64,000 bases of DNA from assembly GCA_034530615.2 (NCBI GenBank), contig JAVRCV020000052.1, positions 192,001-256,000 on the forward strand, given 5' to 3'. The position numbers and the translations under genes were made by a program. This document shows positions 5,546 to 51,217 of the stretch, piece by piece. Below the pieces are notes generated by a model, which saw nothing but the letters and a program-made list of their open reading frames with translations, did no database searches and was not told the DNA's origin. Numbering within the stretch: the stretch's first letter is position 1; each line of letters starts with the position of its first letter. The stretch is from Aulosira sp. ZfuVER01. GTDB taxonomy: Bacteria; Cyanobacteriota; Cyanobacteriia; Cyanobacteriales; Nostocaceae.

Positions 5546-6835
5546 ATGCTCCAAAAGGTTGTCATTATAGGAGCGGGTCCGGCTGGACTGTTACTTGCCC
5601 ATTATTTGTTGCGTCGGGGCAAATATCAAGTTGAGATCTATGAGCAGCGTTCTGACCCGCGTTTGGTGGATGTATCACAAGACCGCACGTTTCCAATATC
5701 GCTTCAGGAACGGGGGAGAAAGGCAATCCGTGAGATTGCAGGGTTAGAGGAGGCGATCGCCCAGAAGAGTGTTTTTTGCAATGGAACGAAAATTTATCGC
5801 CAGCCAGGCAAAGCCCGTAACATTCCGCGTGCAACTCCGATTCTCACTATTGACCGCAATCGCCTTGTAAAGATTATCTTGCAGAAGTTAACAAAAACGT
5901 ACACATCAGAACAAGTCATCGTTAAGTTTGGCGTTCAGTGTGTCCAAGTGGATAGGAAAGCTAAGACCGTGATGTTGAAGCCGGAGCAGGGTGAGGCTTT
6001 CACGCTGGCTTACGATCGCTTGGTTGCCGCAGATGGGGCGCGATCGCACATTCGTGACTATTTAGCCCAGGATGCAGGTTTGCACTGTGAGCAAAGCTAT
6101 GTGCTGGATGCATATAAGTCAGTATTTCTCACGCGATTCAATCAGGCGCTGGGGTTAGAGCTGGAACCTGACAAGATCCATGCGTGGAATCGGGACAATA
6201 AGACCCGGATGATGATGGTACCTCAACCTGAAGATCGGCTCAATGGAGTTATTAGTTTTGATGCCCAGCACAATCCGCTAGCAGGATTGTCTACCAAAGA
6301 GGAGGTCTTGACGTTTTTCCAAAAGAACTTTCCTCTGTTTGGGCAGTTGATGTCACAGGAAGAGGCAGAAGCATTATTGCACCGTCCGGTGGGGCGGGTG
6401 TTAACGGTAAGTTGCGATCGCTTTCATGATGGCGATAGTGTTTTGCTCATTGGAGATGCGGCTCATGCAGTGTCGCCAGCGATTGGGCAGGGGTGCAATG
6501 CCTCATTGGAGGATGTACGGATTTTTGATCGGTTGTTGGAAGAGTATCAAGATGATTGGGCCCAGGTTTTACCCGTCTTTTCTGGGCAACGAGTTCCCGA
6601 TGCCCATGCGCTTCGGGAATTGTCAGATTATTCGTTTCCACGCACGAAGGTGTTAGTTGCTGAGTTTTTCTTGCGATTGACCATGAGCAGGTTCCTCCAT
6701 CGCTGGTTCCCTCAGTGGGTGAAGCCGTTTGTCTTCGATCTAGTGCTAAATGAAGATTTACCCTATTCCCAGGTGTTGAGCCTGAGCCAGGGTTGGATTA
6801 ACAAGGTAAAGCGATCGTTCCCTCATCCCTCGTGA
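5546..6835 (+). CDS. FAD-dependent monooxygenase, kynurenine 3-monooxygenase-like
   Basis: GAGPAG Rossmann motif, LVAADGARS, LLIGDAAHAVSPAIGQGCNASLED. Confidence 0.85.
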   Translation: MLQKVVIIGAGPAGLLLAHYLLRRGKYQVEIYEQRSDPRLVDVSQDRTFPISLQERGRKAIREIAGLEEAIAQKSVFCNGTKIYRQPGKARNIPRATPILTIDRNRLVKIILQKLTKTYTSEQVIVKFGVQCVQVDRKAKTVMLKPEQGEAFTLAYDRLVAADGARSHIRDYLAQDAGLHCEQSYVLDAYKSVFLTRFNQALGLELEPDKIHAWNRDNKTRMMMVPQPEDRLNGVISFDAQHNPLAGLSTKEEVLTFFQKNFPLFGQLMSQEEAEALLHRPVGRVLTVSCDRFHDGDSVLLIGDAAHAVSPAIGQGCNASLEDVRIFDRLLEEYQDDWAQVLPVFSGQRVPDAHALRELSDYSFPRTKVLVAEFFLRLTMSRFLHRWFPQWVKPFVFDLVLNEDLPYSQVLSLSQGWINKVKRSFPHPS

Positions 6836-7128
6836 ATTGCCCTTGTTATAGACTGCATATAGACAAATAGTACCGTAGCGATTGCTGGCTCCAATAAGGT
6901 TCTGTGTCGTTAGCTAAGTCTGTCCACACAGGAGAAATCACTACAGAATTAGCACTCTTGATTTCGCTTACTCAAAACTTTGGTAAGCGCATAAGCGGTA
7001 TAATAAGTATTTGAACTTATTTAGACAATCCATAGATTAAGGACTCCTTCTCTGGCACACCATGCTGCTTTAACCTATGGATTGTTTTTCTAAGCATTGA
7101 TGCTCGATTTTTAAATTTAAGCAATCAA

Positions 7129-7311
7129 GTTGCTCCCGGACAAATCCGGCGCTTTCAAGACCCAATGGCTAAACCCTGGCAGCGAATTCACTTTGCAGGC
7201 GAACATACTGTGATCGCATCTGGGGGGACGGAATCGGCGCTGGAATCAGCAGAGCGAGTCAGCAGCAAGATTTTGAATCGCGTATTACTCCGCTCGGATC
7301 GTAGTTTGTAG
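7129..7311 (+). pseudogene. C-terminal remnant of a flavin monoamine/L-amino acid oxidase
   Basis: Manual translation VAPGQIRRFQDPMAKPWQRIHFAGEHTVIASGGTESALESAERVSSKIL; in-frame stop at 7033-7035 and no N-terminal GxGxxG domain. Confidence 0.8.
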
Positions 7312-7331
7312 GGTGGGCAATACCTACCTAT
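7308..7331 (+). repeat. GTAG-type REP-like palindrome (degenerate)
   Basis: GTAGGGTGGGCAATACCTACCTAT hairpin between convergent genes; a related GTAG-headed hairpin lies at 18511-18544. Confidence 0.45.
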
Positions 7332-7380
7332 ATGTATCTACAAAGTTTTCAATTGTCTAAATTTATTTAGACGAGTTGAT

Positions 7381-8592
7381 TTAAGCTGATTTTTTTATTC
7401 TGATAACATTTGGTGTTACTGCTTGATGTTTGGCTGCTTCTACTTCATAACAGTTGAGAATAAGTGATGCAAGCTTATCGATATCACTTACAGAAGAAAT
7501 AAATACTTTTGATGCGGCATCTCCTAATGAAGCAGTTACTTCCTGAACTTCAAAATTTGGTGCAAGAGACTTAACGTCATTTAAATTCAGCCGAGTAATA
7601 ATACTTTTTTTCTGCGAAGACAGATACAGCCGAAGAAACCACCAGGTAGTTTTACCAAGATGTATTCCAAAGTATGAGGTAGTATCTTTGTATTGAATTT
7701 CAAAATTATAAGTTTTTGAGGTTTGTGTAATCGCTTTAATTTTTTCAAAAGCTGCGATTTCTTCAGCGGTTGTTACTATTCTTGATTCTTGATTTTCTGG
7801 TTGTTTCTCGTATTCTTCAATTTCGGATTCTACTTCTATTTCTTCTGGCTGAGACATTTCTCGGCTCAGTGAGCTTGTCATTAATGATAATAGACTGCCT
7901 TGGATAGACTTTTTAACGATAGGTTTAAATTTTTCAATAACCCTGGTATTAATATTACCTTCAAATTTATATCTTGGTGCAGAGTCACGAAGTTCTGACA
8001 CTAAAAAACGAATAAATTCTTCAGAAGGAGAACGTAAAAGATTATCTACAAGCTGGGTCATGCCTTTTACATAAACCATTTCTCCTGCATGGCTAGCAAT
8101 AGCTGCAACATCAAAATTATCACGATGGAAAAATTTGAGGTTGTCAATATCTTTTGAGTCATATTCAAGTATGTTAAAGGTGAAAAATGGCTCTTTATCC
8201 ATAATATTTTTGTCACGCAAATCAGTAAAAAAACGATATTCTATACCGTTAGTGACAATAGCTACTTTTGTTGTTACAAGTGCATTAAAATACTTGCTCA
8301 GTTGCCCATCATGCGTTTCAGCTTTTTGTCCACGGGCTTTTGCTTCTACGAGCATAACTGTATTATCGTTAATCGCTAAAGCATAATCTACCTTTTCAAA
8401 CTGCCCTGCTCTTCTAGTAGCAAAATCAGCTACGTATTCCGGCATTACTTCGCTCGGATCGTAGACATCATAACCAAGAGCACTTAAGAAAGGGACAATC
8501 AGTGCCATCTTGGTAACTTCTTCACCAACAACCTGATCGGCTCGCTTACGCACTTGTTCAGATAGCCTGGAAATATCTTCAGTGAATCCCAT
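7381..8592 (-). CDS. HSDR_N (type I restriction R N-terminal-like) PD-(D/E)xK nuclease family protein
   Basis: EEVTKMALIVPFLSALGYDV..P.EV.PEY, KVDYAL, MLVEAK, QL..YF, AIVTNGIEYRFFTDL; AT-rich; no helicase motifs. Confidence 0.85.
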   Translation of the reverse strand: MGFTEDISRLSEQVRKRADQVVGEEVTKMALIVPFLSALGYDVYDPSEVMPEYVADFATRRAGQFEKVDYALAINDNTVMLVEAKARGQKAETHDGQLSKYFNALVTTKVAIVTNGIEYRFFTDLRDKNIMDKEPFFTFNILEYDSKDIDNLKFFHRDNFDVAAIASHAGEMVYVKGMTQLVDNLLRSPSEEFIRFLVSELRDSAPRYKFEGNINTRVIEKFKPIVKKSIQGSLLSLMTSSLSREMSQPEEIEVESEIEEYEKQPENQESRIVTTAEEIAAFEKIKAITQTSKTYNFEIQYKDTTSYFGIHLGKTTWWFLRLYLSSQKKSIITRLNLNDVKSLAPNFEVQEVTASLGDAASKVFISSVSDIDKLASLILNCYEVEAAKHQAVTPNVIRIKKSA

Positions 8593-42609: not shown

Positions 42610-43944
42610 TTACAAATTGGTTGTGAGCCTTGCTTTTCTCAAAACAAATGTCAGAACCGTCTCTTGTTTGGAAATTATGTCGGCGGTTACTTGCATACCA
42701 GGTTGAATGGCATAGGATTGATTGCCTTTGGTGAGATGAAGTCTATCTGGCTGGATAGTCACCTCATAGTAAGGTGAAACCCCGATATTACTGTTAGTTT
42801 GAGGTGTAATCGCATCGGCGGTAATGCCTCTGACAGCGCCATTGATAGTGCCATAATCCGGATAAGGATAGGCAGAGATTCTCATAATTACTTTGCCTTC
42901 TGAACATTCAGTGACTTGAGCAGCTTTGCATAAGCGAACCTTACTAATATCAGCAGCATCTACACGAGCTTTGACTAGCAAAGGAGCTTGACTAGGAGCA
43001 ATTTGAGCGATCGCTTGTCCTGGTTGTACAACCTGGCCAGGATTTCTGATGTCCAGTTTCAAGACGCTTCCGGCTTCTAAAGTCCGAATCACAGTTTTTT
43101 GTAAATCCCGATTAATTTGTGTAATTTCTTGCTCGTCTAGGTTAATTTTATTCTGAAGGGCTATTTGACCTTGGATCAAGCTTTCTCGTTCTTTATTCAA
43201 TGCGGCGAGGGTAGACTCACCCTTGGCTTTTTCTTGGGCTATCCGTTCTTGGGTCATCGTCACAGCAGCTATACTCGGATTGAGTCCAGTTTTAGCGCGT
43301 TGCAGTTTGGCGATCGCTGCTTTAAAAGCTTGTTCTTTTTCCTTAATTTGCAGTGTGGCGATCGCTCCCGTATTACCTAACTGTTTATACCGCTTCAGTT
43401 CTTCCTTGGCAAACTCTAAAGTAGCTTTTGCTTCTTCTACTTCTGATTGAGTGATATTTTGTCTATCTTGATATTCTCTTTGATTACGACTGAGATCTGC
43501 TTTTGTCGAAGCTATCTCCCTTTGGATGGAATTAGCCTCAGCAGTTATTTGAGTTTGTAGCGCCTTCAATTGCGCATTTATTTGCGAAATTTGTGATTGA
43601 TTCTGTCGAATATTGTCAATGAGTTGGCTTTTTTTAGTCAGGAGTTGAGAGTCATCAATGATTGCGATCGCTTCACCCTTGGCAAGCGTCTGATTTTCTT
43701 TTACTAAGATAGCTTTAACAATTCCTTGACCTGATGCCTCAATAATTCTCTGTTCTCCTGCGGGACGGACAGTCGCAGGCGATCGCACAGTAATCGGATA
43801 TTTGATAATCGCCGCTAACAAAACCGCCAAACCACAAGTTCCGATCAAAACAACTCCCCCCAATTTTGTCCAACGGCTAATCGCCGGAACAAGTTCGTCA
43901 ATTTGGATTTGACGCAGTAATTCTGGGTTATGTTCACTCAGCAT
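42610..43944 (-). CDS. HlyD-family membrane fusion protein (copy 1)
   Basis: N-terminal TM, GIVKAILVKENQ, long coiled coil, AYPYPDYG, IQPGMQVTADI. Confidence 0.93.
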   Translation of the reverse strand: MLSEHNPELLRQIQIDELVPAISRWTKLGGVVLIGTCGLAVLLAAIIKYPITVRSPATVRPAGEQRIIEASGQGIVKAILVKENQTLAKGEAIAIIDDSQLLTKKSQLIDNIRQNQSQISQINAQLKALQTQITAEANSIQREIASTKADLSRNQREYQDRQNITQSEVEEAKATLEFAKEELKRYKQLGNTGAIATLQIKEKEQAFKAAIAKLQRAKTGLNPSIAAVTMTQERIAQEKAKGESTLAALNKERESLIQGQIALQNKINLDEQEITQINRDLQKTVIRTLEAGSVLKLDIRNPGQVVQPGQAIAQIAPSQAPLLVKARVDAADISKVRLCKAAQVTECSEGKVIMRISAYPYPDYGTINGAVRGITADAITPQTNSNIGVSPYYEVTIQPDRLHLTKGNQSYAIQPGMQVTADIISKQETVLTFVLRKARLTTNL

Positions 43945-44698: not shown

Positions 44699-44878
44699 AT
44701 GGCTAACGCATCAGGTTATGAACTATTTTCAATTTCTGAAAATTTTTTAACAGAATTATCAGCAGAAGATGAGTCTATAATTACAGGTGGCGGTGGCTCC
44801 TGCTACGGTGGAAGTAAGAGCAAGAGCAAGAAGAGCAAGAGCAAGAAGAGCAAGAGCAAGAGCAAAAAGTACTGCTAA
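44699..44878 (+). CDS. RiPP precursor peptide, 59 aa: double-glycine leader plus Ser/Lys-repeat core (absent from the ORF track)
   Basis: GGAGG RBS at 44687-44691, 7 nt before ATG; MANASGYELFSISENFLTELSAEDESIITGG|GGSCYGGSKSKSKKSKSKKSKSKSKKYC*; ELS..E...ITGG leader; first gene of a kinase/HopA1/C39-ABC run. Confidence 0.9.
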   Translation: MANASGYELFSISENFLTELSAEDESIITGGGGSCYGGSKSKSKKSKSKKSKSKSKKYC

Positions 44879-45106: not shown

Positions 45107-46246
45107 ATGACATTTTTATTAAGCGATAGCAATTTTTTAGAGCATCTAATTGAACATAATTTATGTGAGGTTAAAGAACTAAAGATTAGCCAAATTGAAT
45201 CGAAAAGTTGTAAAAACTTTAATTTATTAGTGGTTTTCTCCAATAATCACCATCTGCTGATTAAGCAAGAACGCCATAACAAAGAAGGTAAAACTCATGG
45301 TGAGTTCTTGCAAGAATGGCGCATTCATGAGTGGTTGCAAAATTTTCAAGAACTAAGTGAATTTCGCGCAATTATATCTGAGGCGCTGCATTTTGATCCC
45401 ATTCGCTCAATTATTATTTTTAATTACCTTAACGAATATTGTGACTTAGAAGATTTTTACGACAACGAACATATTTTTCCCCAAGAAATCGCAGCATCTT
45501 TGGGAACAAGTGTAGCCACAATTCATCGCAAAACTTGGAAATGTCAGAAATATAAAGAATTTTTAGCAAAAGACTCTCAAGATATTAGCAAACATCCTAA
45601 CTTTCTCCGTGGTTTAGAAAGAATTAAACCAGAAATTTTTGCTCATATTTCTCTTGAGAATCTAAAATTCTTTAAGCTCTATCAGCGCCATGATCGCCTG
45701 AGACAAGCGATCGCTCAACTACAAACTGCTTACCAAAGTTGTTGTTTAATCCACAATGACTTAAAGCTTAACAATATTTTATTGCATAACCAATGGAAGC
45801 AATCCCCAAATCAAGCCATAGTTCGCTTGATTGATTGGGAAAAATTTGCTTGGGGAGATCCAGCATTGGATCTAGGAACAATCATCGCTAGTTACTTAAA
45901 TATTTGGTTAGGGAGTTTAGTTATCAGTACAGATATTGATTTGCAAACAGCTTTGCGGTTAGCCGGTACTCCCCTAGATCAGATCCAACCTAGTATATTT
46001 TCTTTAATAAAAGCTTATTTAACTCACTTTCCCGAAATTTTGAAGTTACGTCCTAATTTTTTGCAATTGGTAATGCAATTTACTGGTCTGGCATTAGTTG
46101 AAAAAATACAAATAAAAATAGATTATCACGAAGCTTTTGGCAATATAGGTATCTGTATGCTTCAGGTTGCCAATACTTTATTGTGCCATCCAGATAAATC
46201 AATCCCGATTATTTTGGGACACAGCGCCTCTGAGCTAAATTTTTAA
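45107..46246 (+). CDS. APH/choline-kinase-fold phosphotransferase (LanK/TvaC-like peptide kinase)
   Basis: KNFNLLV, LLIKQE, catalytic loop IHNDLKLNNIL, LIDWE, GDPALDLG. Confidence 0.88.
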   Translation: MTFLLSDSNFLEHLIEHNLCEVKELKISQIESKSCKNFNLLVVFSNNHHLLIKQERHNKEGKTHGEFLQEWRIHEWLQNFQELSEFRAIISEALHFDPIRSIIIFNYLNEYCDLEDFYDNEHIFPQEIAASLGTSVATIHRKTWKCQKYKEFLAKDSQDISKHPNFLRGLERIKPEIFAHISLENLKFFKLYQRHDRLRQAIAQLQTAYQSCCLIHNDLKLNNILLHNQWKQSPNQAIVRLIDWEKFAWGDPALDLGTIIASYLNIWLGSLVISTDIDLQTALRLAGTPLDQIQPSIFSLIKAYLTHFPEILKLRPNFLQLVMQFTGLALVEKIQIKIDYHEAFGNIGICMLQVANTLLCHPDKSIPIILGHSASELNF

Positions 46247-46302: not shown

Positions 46303-47391
46303 TTGATGATGCAATTGCGAGATTTACTACCTCATGAGATACCAAATGCTGCCTTAGAAGACATCGTTACCAAGGTTCAGATTCAATCTGACTTTACTAT
46401 TACCCATGCAGATTACCAACCTTTAAAACTTGCTGATGAAATCGTAGTATCTCTTCAAAACTTACCGATCGAAATCCAGAATAGGTATTTGAATCTGCAA
46501 TTGCGGAATTTTCTCTATGGCATTTATTACAATGGCCAATTAAAAGCTACCCTAGCAAACAATGTAAATCCAGATAGTTTATTAGAAATAAAAAAGCTAG
46601 AGAATAATCAAGCTGGCGCATTCAACCGAGAATTTTACGAAGACTTGCAGAAAAGTAACTGTGGTAAAGGCTACTTTGATCCAAGATGGCTTGTAGTGAA
46701 GCAAGAAAGCGATCATCTACTTGCTGTGCAAAAAGATGATTTGACATTGCATATTGAACCAGAACGCTATCTGCAATTAGCTGAACAATCGGCTAATGTT
46801 GGTGATGAAGTTGCTGTGCTGATGCCTCCTAACCTAATAGAACAGGCATATTATGTGGCAGTAAGTGATGCAGGTTTGGTGAATAAAACTCTTGCAGTAA
46901 ATATTAATTTTAATTTTATCTCTGAAGGTGCGATCGCATTGATGAAAAGTCTGACACAGCAACTTAACGAAATCAATATCCCTTTCACTTTTAAGGTTTT
47001 ATACGATCCTGATAATTACCAGCGTTGTGACTGTGGGGTGCTGCAATTTGAAAGTCACAACTACCACATAGTAAAGCAAATTCTTCAGACTGTGTATATA
47101 GCAAACAAATGCCTTTTTCGGGATTTAGTACCTCTGTTTACAAAGTTACTAGCGCCAGGGCTGAGTTTAGCAGAAGAACCAAATAATAAATTTACTGACC
47201 AAGAGAATTTTGGCATGAACCGCTGCCGAATATTGGCTAATGCCTTATTAGAAGCTTGGCAAGAAGGTGACAACTCCCAACAAGGAAAAATGCATTATGT
47301 AGATCGGCATTTCTCCCAACACTTAATTGATCTGCAACGCCCTTATCTTAATGCCAACTCTGAGGATATCTATCCGATGTTGGATTGTTGA
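46303..47391 (+). CDS. HopA1-family protein (LanY/TvaD-like phospho-lyase)
   Basis: LRNFLYGIYYNG, N.GKGYFDPRW, IPFTFKVLY.P..Y.R.D.GVL, VPLFTK.LAPGL.LAEEP, FGMNRC, RPYLN. Confidence 0.85.
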   Translation: MMMQLRDLLPHEIPNAALEDIVTKVQIQSDFTITHADYQPLKLADEIVVSLQNLPIEIQNRYLNLQLRNFLYGIYYNGQLKATLANNVNPDSLLEIKKLENNQAGAFNREFYEDLQKSNCGKGYFDPRWLVVKQESDHLLAVQKDDLTLHIEPERYLQLAEQSANVGDEVAVLMPPNLIEQAYYVAVSDAGLVNKTLAVNINFNFISEGAIALMKSLTQQLNEINIPFTFKVLYDPDNYQRCDCGVLQFESHNYHIVKQILQTVYIANKCLFRDLVPLFTKLLAPGLSLAEEPNNKFTDQENFGMNRCRILANALLEAWQEGDNSQQGKMHYVDRHFSQHLIDLQRPYLNANSEDIYPMLDC

Positions 47392-47480: not shown

Positions 47481-49634
47481 GTGTCTAATCTAAAATACCG
47501 AGTTATAAGACAATATAGCGAAGAAGATTGTGGGGCTGCTTGTATTGCTTCTATTGCCAAATATTACGGACGGAGTTTTGCTCTCAACCGCATCCGTGAA
47601 GCGGTAGGCACTGGGCAACTGGGAACTACTTTGTTAGGTCTGAGACGAGGAATAGAAGCTTTTGGCTTTAATGCACGTTCCGGCAAAGCATCATCCGATT
47701 TTCTCCACAAGCTGGAACAAATGCCCTTACCAGCAATCATCCACTGGAAGGGTAATCATTGGGTGATTTTGTACGGTCGGCGCGGTAAAAATTATATCAT
47801 TGGCGATCCTGCCATTGGTCTACGTTATCTCTCCAAACAGGAGTTAATTGAGGGTTGGACTAATTGGGTACTGCTACTCTTACAGCCAGATCCCAAGCGT
47901 TTTTTTGTCCAATCGGATGACAAAACTAACCACCTGGAGAAATTTCTTCGGTTAATCCTACCCTACCGAGGTGTGATTTTTGAAGCTGTACTTTGTGCCC
48001 AATTTATTGGTCTGCTTTCTTTAGCTTCACCTTTCTTTATTCAAATTCTCACGGATGATGTTTTAGTTAGAGGAGATTTTCAGCTGCTTTTTGGTATAGT
48101 GCTGGCAGTTACAGTGATGTATATTGTCAGAAGTGGGCTGAAACTAGTAGAAAATATTCTAATAGCTCATTTTGCGCAACGTTTAGAATTAACTTTAACC
48201 CTAGAATTTGGTCAACAAATTCTCCGCCTCCCACTTTCTTATTATGAGTCTCGTCGTAGTGGTGAAATTGTTAGCCGATTAAGAGATATTCAACAAATTA
48301 ATAAATTAATCGCCGATGCGATCGTGAGTTTTCCCAGTAAGTTTTTTATTGCCAGCGTTTCTTTTATCTTGATGTTATTTTATAGCTGGAAACTGACAAT
48401 CACAGGCTTAGCAATCGCTGGGGTGATGACTCTATCTACAGTAGTTTTTCTGCCCGCACTCCAGCAGAAAAATCGTAAACTCATGGTTTTAGAAGCCGAA
48501 AACCAAGGTGTGCTAGTAGAAACATTTAAGGGAGCATTAACGCTAAAAACTACTACAGCTGCTCCGGAATTTTGGGAAGAATTTCAGCGCCGATTTAGTC
48601 AATTAGCAAACCTGGAATTGAGTACTATAAAAATTGCGATTATTAATAAGCAATTTTCTAGGTTAGTTTCTGATATTGGTGGTGCTACCTTACTATATAT
48701 TGGTAGTAGCCTGGTGATTAGCAAAGAGTTAAGTATCGGTCAGTTGCTAGCATTCACTAGCCTCAATTATAATGTTGGGTCTTTAATTGATTTTTTTGTT
48801 GACTTTGCAGACGATTTTACTCGTGTCAGAACAGCGACATCAAGACTTCAGGAAGTCGTCAATTCTACACCAGAAACTCAAGGAGATGCTAACAAATCTT
48901 GGACAGAAATTCCTGATAATGCAGACATTGTTTGCAGCAACCTAAACTTTCACTATCCTGGCAGAGTTGAATTACTAGAGAACTTTTCTGTTACTCTTCC
49001 TGGTAGTAAAGTCATTGCTCTAATTGGCGCATCAGGTTGTGGTAAAAGTTCTCTGGCAAAAATCATTGCTGGGTTATATACAACTCAATCAGGAAATATC
49101 CGCTTTGGCATTTATAACCAGCAAGATTTGTCTTTAGACTGTCTGCGAAGACAGGTGGTGCTTGTTCCCCAAGAACCTCACTTTTGGAGTCGTTCAATTA
49201 TTGAAAATTTTCGCTTAGGTTCTCCCAACGTTTCCTTTAAAAAAATTGTCGAGGCTTGCCGAATTGCTGAGGCTGATGATTTTGTGAGCAAGCTACCCGA
49301 AAAATATCAAACCGTTTTAGGTGAATTTGGTGCTAACATTTCTGGCGGACAAAGACAAAGATTAGCCATAGCTAGAGCAATTGTCAACGATCCACCCATT
49401 CTGATTTTAGATGAATCAACTGCTGGACTCGATCCTGTGAGCGAAGCTAAAGTTTTACATAAACTATTCTCCTATCGTCAAGGTAAAACCACGATTCTCA
49501 TTAGCCACCGTCCCAGAGTAATTGAACGTGCTGATTGGATTGTGGTATTAGAGCAGGGTAGGTTGAAAATACAAGGTTCTTTAGAAAAATTGCGATCGCT
49601 ACCTGGTAAGCATTTAGATTTTTTAACTCCCTAA
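47481..49634 (+). CDS. Peptidase-containing ABC transporter (C39 + TMD + ATPase)
   Basis: QYSEEDCGAAC (catalytic Cys), HWKGNHW, IGDP; Walker A GASGCGKS, ISGGQRQR, ILDES. Confidence 0.95.
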   Translation: MSNLKYRVIRQYSEEDCGAACIASIAKYYGRSFALNRIREAVGTGQLGTTLLGLRRGIEAFGFNARSGKASSDFLHKLEQMPLPAIIHWKGNHWVILYGRRGKNYIIGDPAIGLRYLSKQELIEGWTNWVLLLLQPDPKRFFVQSDDKTNHLEKFLRLILPYRGVIFEAVLCAQFIGLLSLASPFFIQILTDDVLVRGDFQLLFGIVLAVTVMYIVRSGLKLVENILIAHFAQRLELTLTLEFGQQILRLPLSYYESRRSGEIVSRLRDIQQINKLIADAIVSFPSKFFIASVSFILMLFYSWKLTITGLAIAGVMTLSTVVFLPALQQKNRKLMVLEAENQGVLVETFKGALTLKTTTAAPEFWEEFQRRFSQLANLELSTIKIAIINKQFSRLVSDIGGATLLYIGSSLVISKELSIGQLLAFTSLNYNVGSLIDFFVDFADDFTRVRTATSRLQEVVNSTPETQGDANKSWTEIPDNADIVCSNLNFHYPGRVELLENFSVTLPGSKVIALIGASGCGKSSLAKIIAGLYTTQSGNIRFGIYNQQDLSLDCLRRQVVLVPQEPHFWSRSIIENFRLGSPNVSFKKIVEACRIAEADDFVSKLPEKYQTVLGEFGANISGGQRQRLAIARAIVNDPPILILDESTAGLDPVSEAKVLHKLFSYRQGKTTILISHRPRVIERADWIVVLEQGRLKIQGSLEKLRSLPGKHLDFLTP

Positions 49635-49726: not shown

Positions 49727-51061
49727 CTATAAATCTGTTAGCAACCTTGCTTTTCTTAACATAAATGTCAATACTGTTTCTTGTTGGGCAATAATTTCAG
49801 CCGTTACTTCCATCCCAGATTGAATAGCATAGGATTGATTGCTTTTGCTCAGATTGAGTTGATCGGGCTGGATGATTACCTCATAGTAAGGTACAGATGC
49901 GAGATTGCTATTAGTTTGAGGCGTAATTGCATCAGATGTAATACCTCTGACAGCACCATTTAGCGTACCGTAATCTGGGTAAGGATAGGCAGAAATCCGC
50001 ATAATGACTCTACCCTCTGTACATTGCTTTACTTGGATGGCTTTACATAGCCGCACTTTACTAATATCAGCAGCAACTACACGAGCTTTAACAACTAAAG
50101 GCGCTTGATTGGGGGAAATTTGCGCGATCGCATCTCCAGCGCGTACCACTTGTCCAGGATTTCGGATTTCTAGTTTCAGGATAGTACCTGTGTCTGAGGC
50201 TCGAATGATAGTTTTTTGTAGGTCTGTTGAGACTTGTTTGAATTCTGTTTGAGCAGTGTTGATTTGGTTTTGAATTTCAACGTGGCGACGGATTAGTTCT
50301 TCTTGTTCTTTCTTCAAAATCGCCAGGGTAGATTCACCCTTGGCTTTTTCTTGAGCAATTCGTTCACTTGCGATCGCTACTGTTGCATTACTAGGGTTAA
50401 GTCCAGCTTTGGCACGTTGGAGTCTAGCCAATGACGCTTTAAACGCCTGTTCTTTCTCCTTAATTTGCAGAGTGGCGATCGCTCCTGTATTCCCCAGTTG
50501 CTGATAGCGCTTCATTTCTTCCTTAGCCAATTCTAGAGCGGCTTCCGCTTCTTGCACTTGTGTCTGAGTAGCGATCTGTTGGTCTTGATAATCCCGTTGG
50601 TTGCGACTTAAGTCAGCTTCAGCAGAGGCGATCGCTCGTTGTATAGAATTAGATTCAGCAGTGATTTGAGTTTTTAAGGCCTTGATTTGGGCAACAATTT
50701 GTGCTAACTGTAAATTATTCTGGTGAATCGTGCCTAAAATTTGGCTTTTTTTGGTTTCCAGTTGAGTAGAGTCAATGTAGGCGATCGCATCCCCCTGATT
50801 GACTACCTGATTTTCTTTCACCAAAATACTTTTGACAATTCCTTCACTAGTTGATTGCACTAAGCGGACATCACCAGTCGGACGGACTGTGGCAGATGCG
50901 GTAACGGTGACATTGTACTGAGTCACCCCAGCCAAAATCAAAGCTACACCTACAGTTCCAATGAGGAATAAACCCCCTAATGTTGTCCAAAGACTAATTG
51001 GTGGCAGAAATTGGTCACTGCTGATTGGGCGAATCAAGTCGGGACTGGGGTCGCTATGCAT
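49727..51061 (-). CDS. HlyD-family membrane fusion protein (copy 2)
   Basis: Likely start MHSDPSPDL (51061), by comparison with copy 1; same TM / coiled-coil / AYPYPDYG layout. Confidence 0.93.
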   Translation of the reverse strand: MHSDPSPDLIRPISSDQFLPPISLWTTLGGLFLIGTVGVALILAGVTQYNVTVTASATVRPTGDVRLVQSTSEGIVKSILVKENQVVNQGDAIAYIDSTQLETKKSQILGTIHQNNLQLAQIVAQIKALKTQITAESNSIQRAIASAEADLSRNQRDYQDQQIATQTQVQEAEAALELAKEEMKRYQQLGNTGAIATLQIKEKEQAFKASLARLQRAKAGLNPSNATVAIASERIAQEKAKGESTLAILKKEQEELIRRHVEIQNQINTAQTEFKQVSTDLQKTIIRASDTGTILKLEIRNPGQVVRAGDAIAQISPNQAPLVVKARVVAADISKVRLCKAIQVKQCTEGRVIMRISAYPYPDYGTLNGAVRGITSDAITPQTNSNLASVPYYEVIIQPDQLNLSKSNQSYAIQSGMEVTAEIIAQQETVLTFMLRKARLLTDL

Positions 51062-51217
51062 GAGCGCGAGAATAAGTAAGCAGCATATCAATTTACACAC
51101 AATAAATCCTGTATAGTCAATGGAAATACTACGGGGTTTTTTGTGGCTGCCTTAATTTCACTCTAACCTTCAGCAGCTAGGGCTTGCTCGACTGTTAATT
51201 TTATACTTGAGGTGTTG

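Follow-up and report, generated by a model that had tools for sequence, protein, structure and literature searches.

Does a kinase–HopA1 pair that has lost part of its lyase active site still dehydrate its peptide, or does it leave the peptide phosphorylated? This question is raised by a gene cluster of the cyanobacterium Aulosira sp. ZfuVER01. The original prediction for this locus held that the lyase motifs are degenerate and that the protein may survive as a partner of the kinase while eliminating phosphate poorly.

A compact cluster pairs a kinase and a HopA1 protein with a Ser-Lys repeat precursor

The Aulosira cluster lies within the window, the 64,000-nucleotide stretch of DNA that we analyzed. 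A gene for a HlyD-family adaptor (42610–43944, minus strand; PF13437) is divergent relative to the rest of the cluster, which continues on the plus strand with a precursor peptide of 59 residues (44699–44878), an APH-family, LanK-like Ser/Thr kinase (45107–46246; PF01636), a protein with the HopA1/LanY fold (46303–47391; PF17914, E 4.6e-53), and a C39-peptidase ABC exporter (47481–49634; PF03412, PF00664, and PF00005) that is predicted to cleave off the leader and secrete the core. A second HlyD-family adaptor gene (49727–51100, minus strand; PF13437) is convergent on the exporter. The two HlyD paralogs that flank the cluster, both on the minus strand, are 67% identical by BLASTP. A divergent HlyD gene occupies the same position in L001, L040, L075, L177–L179, and L181, and most relatives inspected have a single HlyD gene, versus the two that flank the Aulosira cluster. 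A scan for promoters and terminators gave counts not above chance (12 versus 21.5 and 5 versus 6.1, respectively).

The precursor reading frame has a leader of the Family 1A type with a predicted double-glycine site, at which cleavage would release a core of 28 residues. This core contains 9 Ser, 11 Lys, 2 Cys, and 2 Tyr residues, with Ser and Lys mostly in alternation, and the predicted core has a monoisotopic mass of 2970.57 Da when unmodified, which nine phosphates would raise to 3690.27 Da. A protein database contains 51 peptides related to this Ser-Lys precursor. The double-glycine leader adjoining a phosphotransferase–HopA1 pair is a feature of Family 1A clusters. Among the ORFs scanned in 34897–59124, there is no gene for a lanthionine or AviCys cyclase or for a decarboxylase, and a Pfam scan of the ORFs of the cluster itself detected no LanC-like, reductase, or other tailoring gene.

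The HopA1 protein lacks two conserved active-site residues

The HopA1 reading frame encodes 362 residues from a TTG start, and the database form of the protein starts two codons later (360 residues); residue numbers given here refer to the 362-residue frame. The protein scores 180 bits against the PF17914 model (Pfam cut-off, 22.7). The sequences on which the original prediction rested, VNINFN (residues 199–204, positions 46897–46914), RCDCGVLQF (241–249), and ENFGMNRC (301–308), are all present where it placed them. The consensus that it gave for cyanobacterial homologs (VRIYFN, RYDSGVLYF, and ESFGMNRC) also proves correct when residues are counted by column over an alignment with the best 119 of 980 homologs, of which the named ones are cyanobacterial. 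Among these 119 proteins, column 200 holds Arg in 104, column 202 Tyr in all 119, columns 242 and 244 Tyr and Ser in 111 and 108, column 248 Tyr in 106, and column 302 Ser in 112. At these positions the Aulosira protein has Asn200 (46900–46902, plus strand), Asn202 (46906–46908, plus strand), which none of the 119 shares, Cys242, Cys244, Gln248 (47044–47046, plus strand), and Asn302. It agrees with the consensus, again as predicted, at Lys231 (46993–46995, plus strand; 119 of 119), Arg241 (47023–47025, plus strand; 114), Asp243 (116), and the Arg of the NRC motif, Arg307 (116). Overall, the Aulosira lyase departs from its homologs at 21 of 154 highly conserved columns and sits on a long end branch.

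Relatives P0003–P0006 have Asn200 and Gln248 in common with the Aulosira protein, so these residues are not sequencing errors. Contigs of three sequencing runs, in the rows shown, have no differing letters or gaps over the lyase gene, a check that is not independent because the window itself may derive from these runs. Among the best 119 of 980 homologs, 15 lack Arg200; Tyr248 is missing as well from 12 of these and present in 2, and the remaining one is truncated. None lacks Tyr248 while keeping Arg200.

Among solved structures, the only convincing sequence match to the HopA1 protein is chain 9DK1_B, described in the available text of a review as part of the LxmKY dehydratase (PMC12141560), and the predicted model of the protein (pLDDT 88) has LxmY chains as its top Foldseek matches (9DK1_B, E 1.4e-15). 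Columns 200, 202, 231, 241, and 248 align to residues R189, F191, K221, R231, and Y238 of the LxmY chain. The spacing of the Arg, Lys, Arg, and Tyr residues (32/10/7) is identical in LxmY and in CaoY (R187, K219, R229, and Y236), and we therefore infer the correspondence to CaoY by way of LxmY. The LxmY alignments stop short of the N-terminal region, where the accessory His (CaoY H57) would map. Asn200 thus occupies the position of the catalytic Arg, the retained Lys231 and Arg241 those of the catalytic base and of a phosphate-binding residue, and Gln248 that of a conserved active-site Tyr, the counterpart of CaoY Y236 and SpvC Y158. According to the available text of the CaoY study, almost no elimination remains with the R187A substitution and most of the peptide stays phosphorylated, with minor dehydrated species still listed; K219A abolishes elimination, and R229Q makes it inefficient (PMC9486802). 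The same text describes Tyr236 as conserved across LanY, OspF, and LanKC/L and contains no mutant of it (PMC9486802). Based on these alignments, the Aulosira protein appears to have lost one catalytic residue tested by mutagenesis and one conserved residue, while keeping two catalytic positions. Of the features of a class V lyase, PF17914, the LanY fold, the Lys, and the second Arg are present, and the catalytic Arg and the Tyr are absent.

This assignment changes the motif originally proposed. An R-x-Y motif at columns 200 and 202 had been suggested as the equivalent of the K-x-H motif of OspF/SpvC-type lyases, and the two residues fare differently. The Arg stands, in that column 200 aligns to the LxmY residue that corresponds to CaoY R187. 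Tyr202 does not: the position is Phe in the active LxmY, 12 of 13 and 18 of 18 Arg-less relatives still have the Tyr, and LanY enzymes lack the OspF/SpvC His altogether according to the CaoY study as available (PMC9486802). These observations rule out Tyr202 as the catalytic acid, and since LxmY has Phe and Arg-less relatives retain the Tyr, the residue is probably structural, with Asn202 a private change at a position that likely calls for an aromatic side chain. The positions of Cys242 and Cys244 also depart from the consensus in LxmY, where they are Arg and Ala. The second loss of catalytic relevance is instead that of Tyr248 to Gln, which lay within a motif that the original prediction quoted yet was not singled out there.

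The kinase is intact and is predicted to pair with the lyase-like protein

As had been predicted from its HND...N and DWE motifs, the kinase retains its catalytic residues: Lys53, Glu70, H216-x-D218...N223 (HNDLKLNN), and D243-W-E (IDWE). It matches the LxmK model with an E value of 3.6e-23 and 82 bits, which is under the cut-off of 315, and a sequence search of the PDB with the kinase returned no match at E 0.01. The predicted kinase–lyase heterodimer scores 0.76, versus 0.00 for the best of three controls, on a scale whose mark is reached by 116 of 157 solved pairs and 2 of 215 mismatched pairs. Agreement between runs is at least 74%, and the pLDDT of the partners is at least 84. The predicted interface is formed by residues 145–151 and 172–182 of the lyase and 172–194 of the kinase. 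Because this complex resembles one that has already been solved, LxmKY, the score indicates likeness rather than binding.

Partner kinases of other pathways need a lyase protein for solubility or activity, and this dependence offers a reason why a dead lyase would be retained. As described in the available portions of these reports, CaoK alone is mostly insoluble (PMC9486802), LxmK and LxmY stabilize each other, with LxmK requiring LxmY or a tag (PMC12141560), and TvaC alone forms no phosphopeptide but does so with an inactivated TvaD (bioRxiv 2020.08.21.260521). LanK and LanY proteins are reported in the available texts to act as tight dimers (PMC9486802 and PMC12141560). The original suggestion that the lyase survives as a partner of the kinase fits the predicted dimer, allowing for its likeness to LxmKY, and the purifying selection described below. 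Interface columns are slightly better conserved than mapped pocket columns (0.70 versus 0.56 identical), a modest difference that weighs little. Neither enzyme shows a net acidification that would accommodate a basic core (p 0.22 for the lyase; for the kinase p 0.04, with any shift being toward lower acidity), though at a few columns of the lyase basic residues are lost or acidic ones gained. At a second predicted contact, between kinase residues 339–343 and lyase residues 105–108, 11 of 14 kinases have Glu or Asp in place of Lys342, and 9 of 13 lyases have Asn in place of Asp108; these clade-wide changes may reflect co-variation at the interface.

Loss of the catalytic arginine accompanies repeat cores

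To our lyase-first survey belong 119 distinct lyases from related genomes and metagenomes, a set that was gathered partly with an alignment of Arg-less lyases and is therefore enriched for them, so that its counts are not population frequencies. For 31 of the 119 no precursor is in view, which leaves 88. Where the core is a Ser/Thr-Lys/Arg repeat, Arg200 is absent from all 14 lyases; beside other cores, it is kept in 61 of 74 and absent from 13. These 13 comprise seven second pairs of tandem clusters, four loci with long precursors, one with a Thr/Pro-rich core, and L002. Two intact lyases with long cores and scattered Ser-Lys pairs (L049 and L149) were classed by hand as non-repeat, and their repeat densities are 0.14 and 0.11 versus 0.20–0.69 in the repeat cores scored. 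A C39-ABC gene directly follows the lyase gene in 12 of 36 Arg-less loci versus none of 83 loci that keep the Arg. A scan of genome contigs with a single protein found two loci only.

The 13 full-length lyases linked to repeat cores show which residues are lost. Arg200 is kept in none, Tyr248, Ser302, and Gln180 in two each, Arg241 in 6, and Lys231 in 12, relative to a mean retention of 0.80 over 129 conserved columns. Column 200 is the least retained of these 129 otherwise conserved columns, in a comparison whose reference set was itself chosen for having Arg200 and Lys231. The residues found in place of the Arg are many and varied. The kinases of these clusters keep their catalytic motifs in 14 of 14 cases.

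We also approached the association from the precursor side. Run against 389 genomes from the family and 401 from the phylum, a first profile identified loci in 11 genomes besides that of Aulosira. Three of these 11 gave peptides already in the profile query and eight were new; the latter, which are included in the lyase-first counts, comprise six repeat cores with an Arg-less lyase, one contig that is too short, and one leader-only match beside an intact lyase. A second profile, built on more distant peptides, matched 26 of 401 genomes of the order, and 24 of these loci were analyzed, with the Aulosira genome and one locus already known set aside. Nineteen of the 24 show a lyase, in two cases cut by the end of the locus, and five lack a full lyase. 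This search makes no use of the lyase sequence. Of the 19 lyases, 18 lack Arg200, 17 lack Tyr248, and 11 lack Lys231, and all 16 kinases longer than 240 residues in view keep the HxD..N and DWE motifs. The sole intact lyase, at L244, stands beside non-alternating cores, one of which has a density of 0.16 and so exceeds the 0.15 cut, making it a numerical exception (10/11). The expected link between loss of R-x-Y and SK-rich precursors thus applies to its Arg (14 of 14 and 18 of 19) and fails for its Tyr, which Arg-less relatives keep.

The cores beside Arg-less lyases vary in composition. They include an Arg-Thr repeat in L067 (4361–4522), an Arg-Ser repeat in L238 (2535–2729), Gly-Lys repeats with a single Ser in L236 (7393–7611), and an acidic Thr/Pro repeat in L148 (1075–1236). 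Five cores (L040, L067, L180, L183, and L238) have no Cys, and many others end in Cys motifs. At L144–L147, Arg-less lyases stand beside precursors of 110–123 residues with hydrophobic cores and basic, Ser-containing ends, so that the enzyme clade is shared and the type of substrate is another.

Arg-less lyases evolve under constraint and may have arisen more than once

Pairwise dN/dS values are 0.17–0.35 for Arg-less lyases (nine pairs) and 0.10–0.34 for intact lyases (nine pairs), with similar values for the kinases. Judged by these ratios, the Arg-less lyase is under purifying selection, and together with the spread of the trait across the family they rule out a one-off pseudogene.

After removal of the trait columns, the Aulosira protein and 14 full-length Arg-less sequences fall on one side of a single branch (SH 99). 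Three further Arg-less loci, L089, L091, and L148, lie among intact clusters in both the lyase and the kinase trees, away from the main Arg-less group. A single Arg-less clade is rejected for 36 concatenated sequences (p-AU 0.0046), in a test whose groups were chosen after the trees had been viewed and from which long branches were left out. The trees suggest that loss of the Arg together with a repeat core arose at least twice. A test on independent pairs gave no signal, with only two pairs on well-supported branches and most loci being kin.

Some copies of the cluster are broken. In L001 (Calothrix sp. NIES-2100, 6001–8503), a deletion has cost the lyase its C-terminal half and the exporter its C39 domain, and the precursor and kinase genes are whole. 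The Ser-Lys precursor of L177 (7777–8022) is apparently frameshifted in its leader, and L222 is in fragments.

A proposed phosphorylated end product and its alternatives

The reading that we favor, with somewhat more confidence than doubt, is that the Aulosira pair consists of a pseudo-lyase scaffold and a working kinase that together yield an exported, multiply phosphorylated Ser-Lys peptide. The lyase-like protein, without its two active-site residues, would serve only as a stabilizing partner of the intact kinase, which would phosphorylate several serines of the repeat core. With elimination lost, the phosphates would mostly stay on the core, and a phosphopeptide of balanced charge would be secreted by the C39-ABC/HlyD exporter, which would also remove the leader. 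Because the catalytic Arg is lost and the kinase motifs are intact, the peptide is likely exported still phosphorylated, both in Aulosira and in about 30 related clusters. Inactivity of the Aulosira copy, its pairing with the kinase, and export of the product are all expected on this reading. Nine phosphates would be a ceiling only; CaoK without working elimination adds at most three to four phosphates where eight sites are dehydrated, according to the available text (PMC9486802), so full phosphorylation is not assured and the number may be well under nine. Against the favored reading stand the 13 Arg-less lyases with other cores, which show that the Arg is also lost where there is no repeat, as well as the single-Ser core of L236, the intact lyase of L244 beside a core just above the density cut, the broken clusters, and the private Asn202 of the Aulosira copy at an invariant column.

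The main rival is residual elimination, because Lys231 and Arg241 remain. A slowed or re-tuned lyase would remove phosphate from a small number of sites, such as those close to the terminal Cys residues, to give a mixed phospho/dehydro product with possible spontaneous thioether or lysinoalanine links. The Aulosira copy also keeps Asp243 and Arg307, 12 of 13 near relatives share Lys231 (although the position tolerates Gln or Ala elsewhere), many cores end in Cys motifs, and CaoY R187A retains traces of elimination in the text available (PMC9486802). Yet both Arg200 and Tyr248 are gone, the Lys is missing as well from 11 of 19 relatives found through their precursors, several cores have no Cys at all, and the Aulosira cluster is without a LanC-like or other tailoring gene, all of which make this alternative unlikely, at about a third of the weight we give the phosphorylated product. 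Improbable to a greater degree is that the modifying pair is vestigial for this substrate or has begun to decay, with the polycationic peptide leaving the cell through the ABC/HlyD system as an unmodified working product. The deletion in L001, the closest named relative, the broken copies L177 and L222, the single-Ser core of L236, and the 21 changed columns and long end branch of the Aulosira lyase all speak for decay. The L001 deletion also takes the exporter peptidase, however, and is therefore a loss of the whole cluster rather than of the lyase alone; moreover, the kinase motifs are intact in 14 of 14 and 16 of 16 cases, dN/dS is about 0.2 for both enzymes, and the Aulosira reading frames are whole.

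We consider it very improbable that the phosphopeptide is an intermediate that is dehydrated in trans by an intact kinase–lyase pair or a LanM enzyme encoded elsewhere in the genome. The Aulosira genome does encode three other HopA1 proteins, two of them with all mapped residues (L037 and L039), together with a LanM and similar leaders, and cross-cluster rescue is described for thioviridamide in the available part of that report (bioRxiv 2020.08.21.260521). In contrast, a HopA1 match with Arg200, Lys231, and Tyr248 is absent from 8 of the 15 genomes with such clusters that were checked (one of which is 75% complete), and the tight LanK–LanY dimers described in the available texts (PMC9486802 and PMC12141560) also speak against this reading.

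If the peptide is indeed exported with its phosphates, a subset of kinase–HopA1 pairs, which genome mining treats as dehydratases, would make multiply phosphorylated peptides, and one alignment column plus the core sequence would serve as a prediction rule for an uncharacterized cyanobacterial family. The lyase-like protein would be a natural pseudoenzyme for testing the scaffold role of LanY, and the kinase a leader-directed tool for phosphopeptides that are hard to synthesize. As to what the peptide does, a place in a matrix that binds mineral or metal and charge masking of a polycation are both guesses. A broader proposal, which we put forward only tentatively and would sooner doubt than accept, is that class V dehydratases became peptide poly-kinases at least twice in cyanobacteria, with the lyase disarmed and retained as a scaffold, and that their secreted peptides, with dense alternating phosphoSer/Thr and Lys/Arg, are a ribosomal, bacterial counterpart to the zwitterionic phosphopeptides of silaffin type, possibly involved in sheath, mineral, or metal binding.

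Relation to known systems

The Aulosira pair shares its side-by-side APH kinase and PF17914 genes and its fold with the class V dehydratases CaoK/CaoY, LxmK/LxmY (PDB 9DK1-3), and the thioamitide pair TvaC/TvaD. The predicted dimer likewise would use the same β-sheet domain and kinase helices near 172–194 (173–199 in CaoK). Unlike these systems, the Aulosira cluster lacks the catalytic Arg and Tyr as well as a decarboxylase, a cyclase, and a reductase, and it has a Ser-Lys repeat core and a dedicated C39-ABC exporter directly downstream. The closest described clusters are those of cyanobacterial Family 1A (type B), which, in the portions available, have the same double-glycine leader and kinase–HopA1 pair (Eyles et al. 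2021, PMC8153245; Liang et al. 2022, PMC9486802). Some Ser/Lys-rich precursors have been known since 2021: the supplement to that work, as available, includes five such peptides, from Scytonema (network 103) and from Stanieria, Pleurocapsa, and Moorea (network 1), and the nearest of those listed sit in the separate small network 103 (PMC8153245). The section available treats the Family 1A pair as a dehydratase with unknown products and does not mention lost lyase residues or a link to repeat cores (PMC8153245). Our literature search, which covered papers outside subscription, found no paper on cyanobacterial HopA1/LanY proteins with lost lyase residues; a family of class V dehydratases in which the lyase has been disarmed is thus apparently undescribed in that literature.

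Few bacterial peptides carry phosphate as their final modification, with a handful of examples in the available text of a 2025 paper (PMC12639078). In phospeptin (EmbA/EmbM), as far as the available text describes it, mutated elimination residues lead to a phosphorylated linear final product, and EmbM is a single LanM-type domain that places two phosphates on Thr (Paoli et al. 2022, PMC9259500). The proposed Aulosira system differs in that it is of class V, divides the work between two proteins of which one is a disarmed lyase, and has up to nine alternating Ser residues as sites. Diatom silaffin-1A is comparable by functional analogy only: it is described in the available text as a zwitterionic peptide rich in Ser, Lys, Gly, and Tyr with about eight phosphoserines (PMC11733937). 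It differs in being eukaryotic, made by unrelated machinery, and modified with polyamines on Lys, and mineral binding by the Aulosira peptide would be a guess. The double-glycine secreted biofilm proteins of Synechococcus are reportedly another functional analogy.

Other HopA1 loci with altered enzymes

A separate and widespread clade (L038, L050, L096–L102, L113, L186, and L187) has Gln at the position of the catalytic Lys and mostly keeps Arg200. It is possibly a second pseudo-lyase system. No leader-type precursor is near the pair in the four loci inspected, and the pair at L038, which is in the Aulosira genome (G000:C11, lyase 5889–6977), adjoins MenC-like and AMP-binding genes. In the tandem clusters L043, L056, L066, L074, L111, L151, and L154, an intact pair is accompanied by a second one whose kinase is without HxD and whose lyase is without most mapped residues; this second pair would be a double pseudoenzyme, perhaps a cyclase, and several precursors of these clusters end in an LLLC-type motif. 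The Aulosira genome also contains, at L039 (G000:C17, 2637–5942), an intact kinase–lyase pair directly followed by a LanM-type synthetase and Cys-containing precursors. Finally, L158 (5972–8101) encodes a HopA1 protein of 709 residues with a long extension, an apparent fusion.
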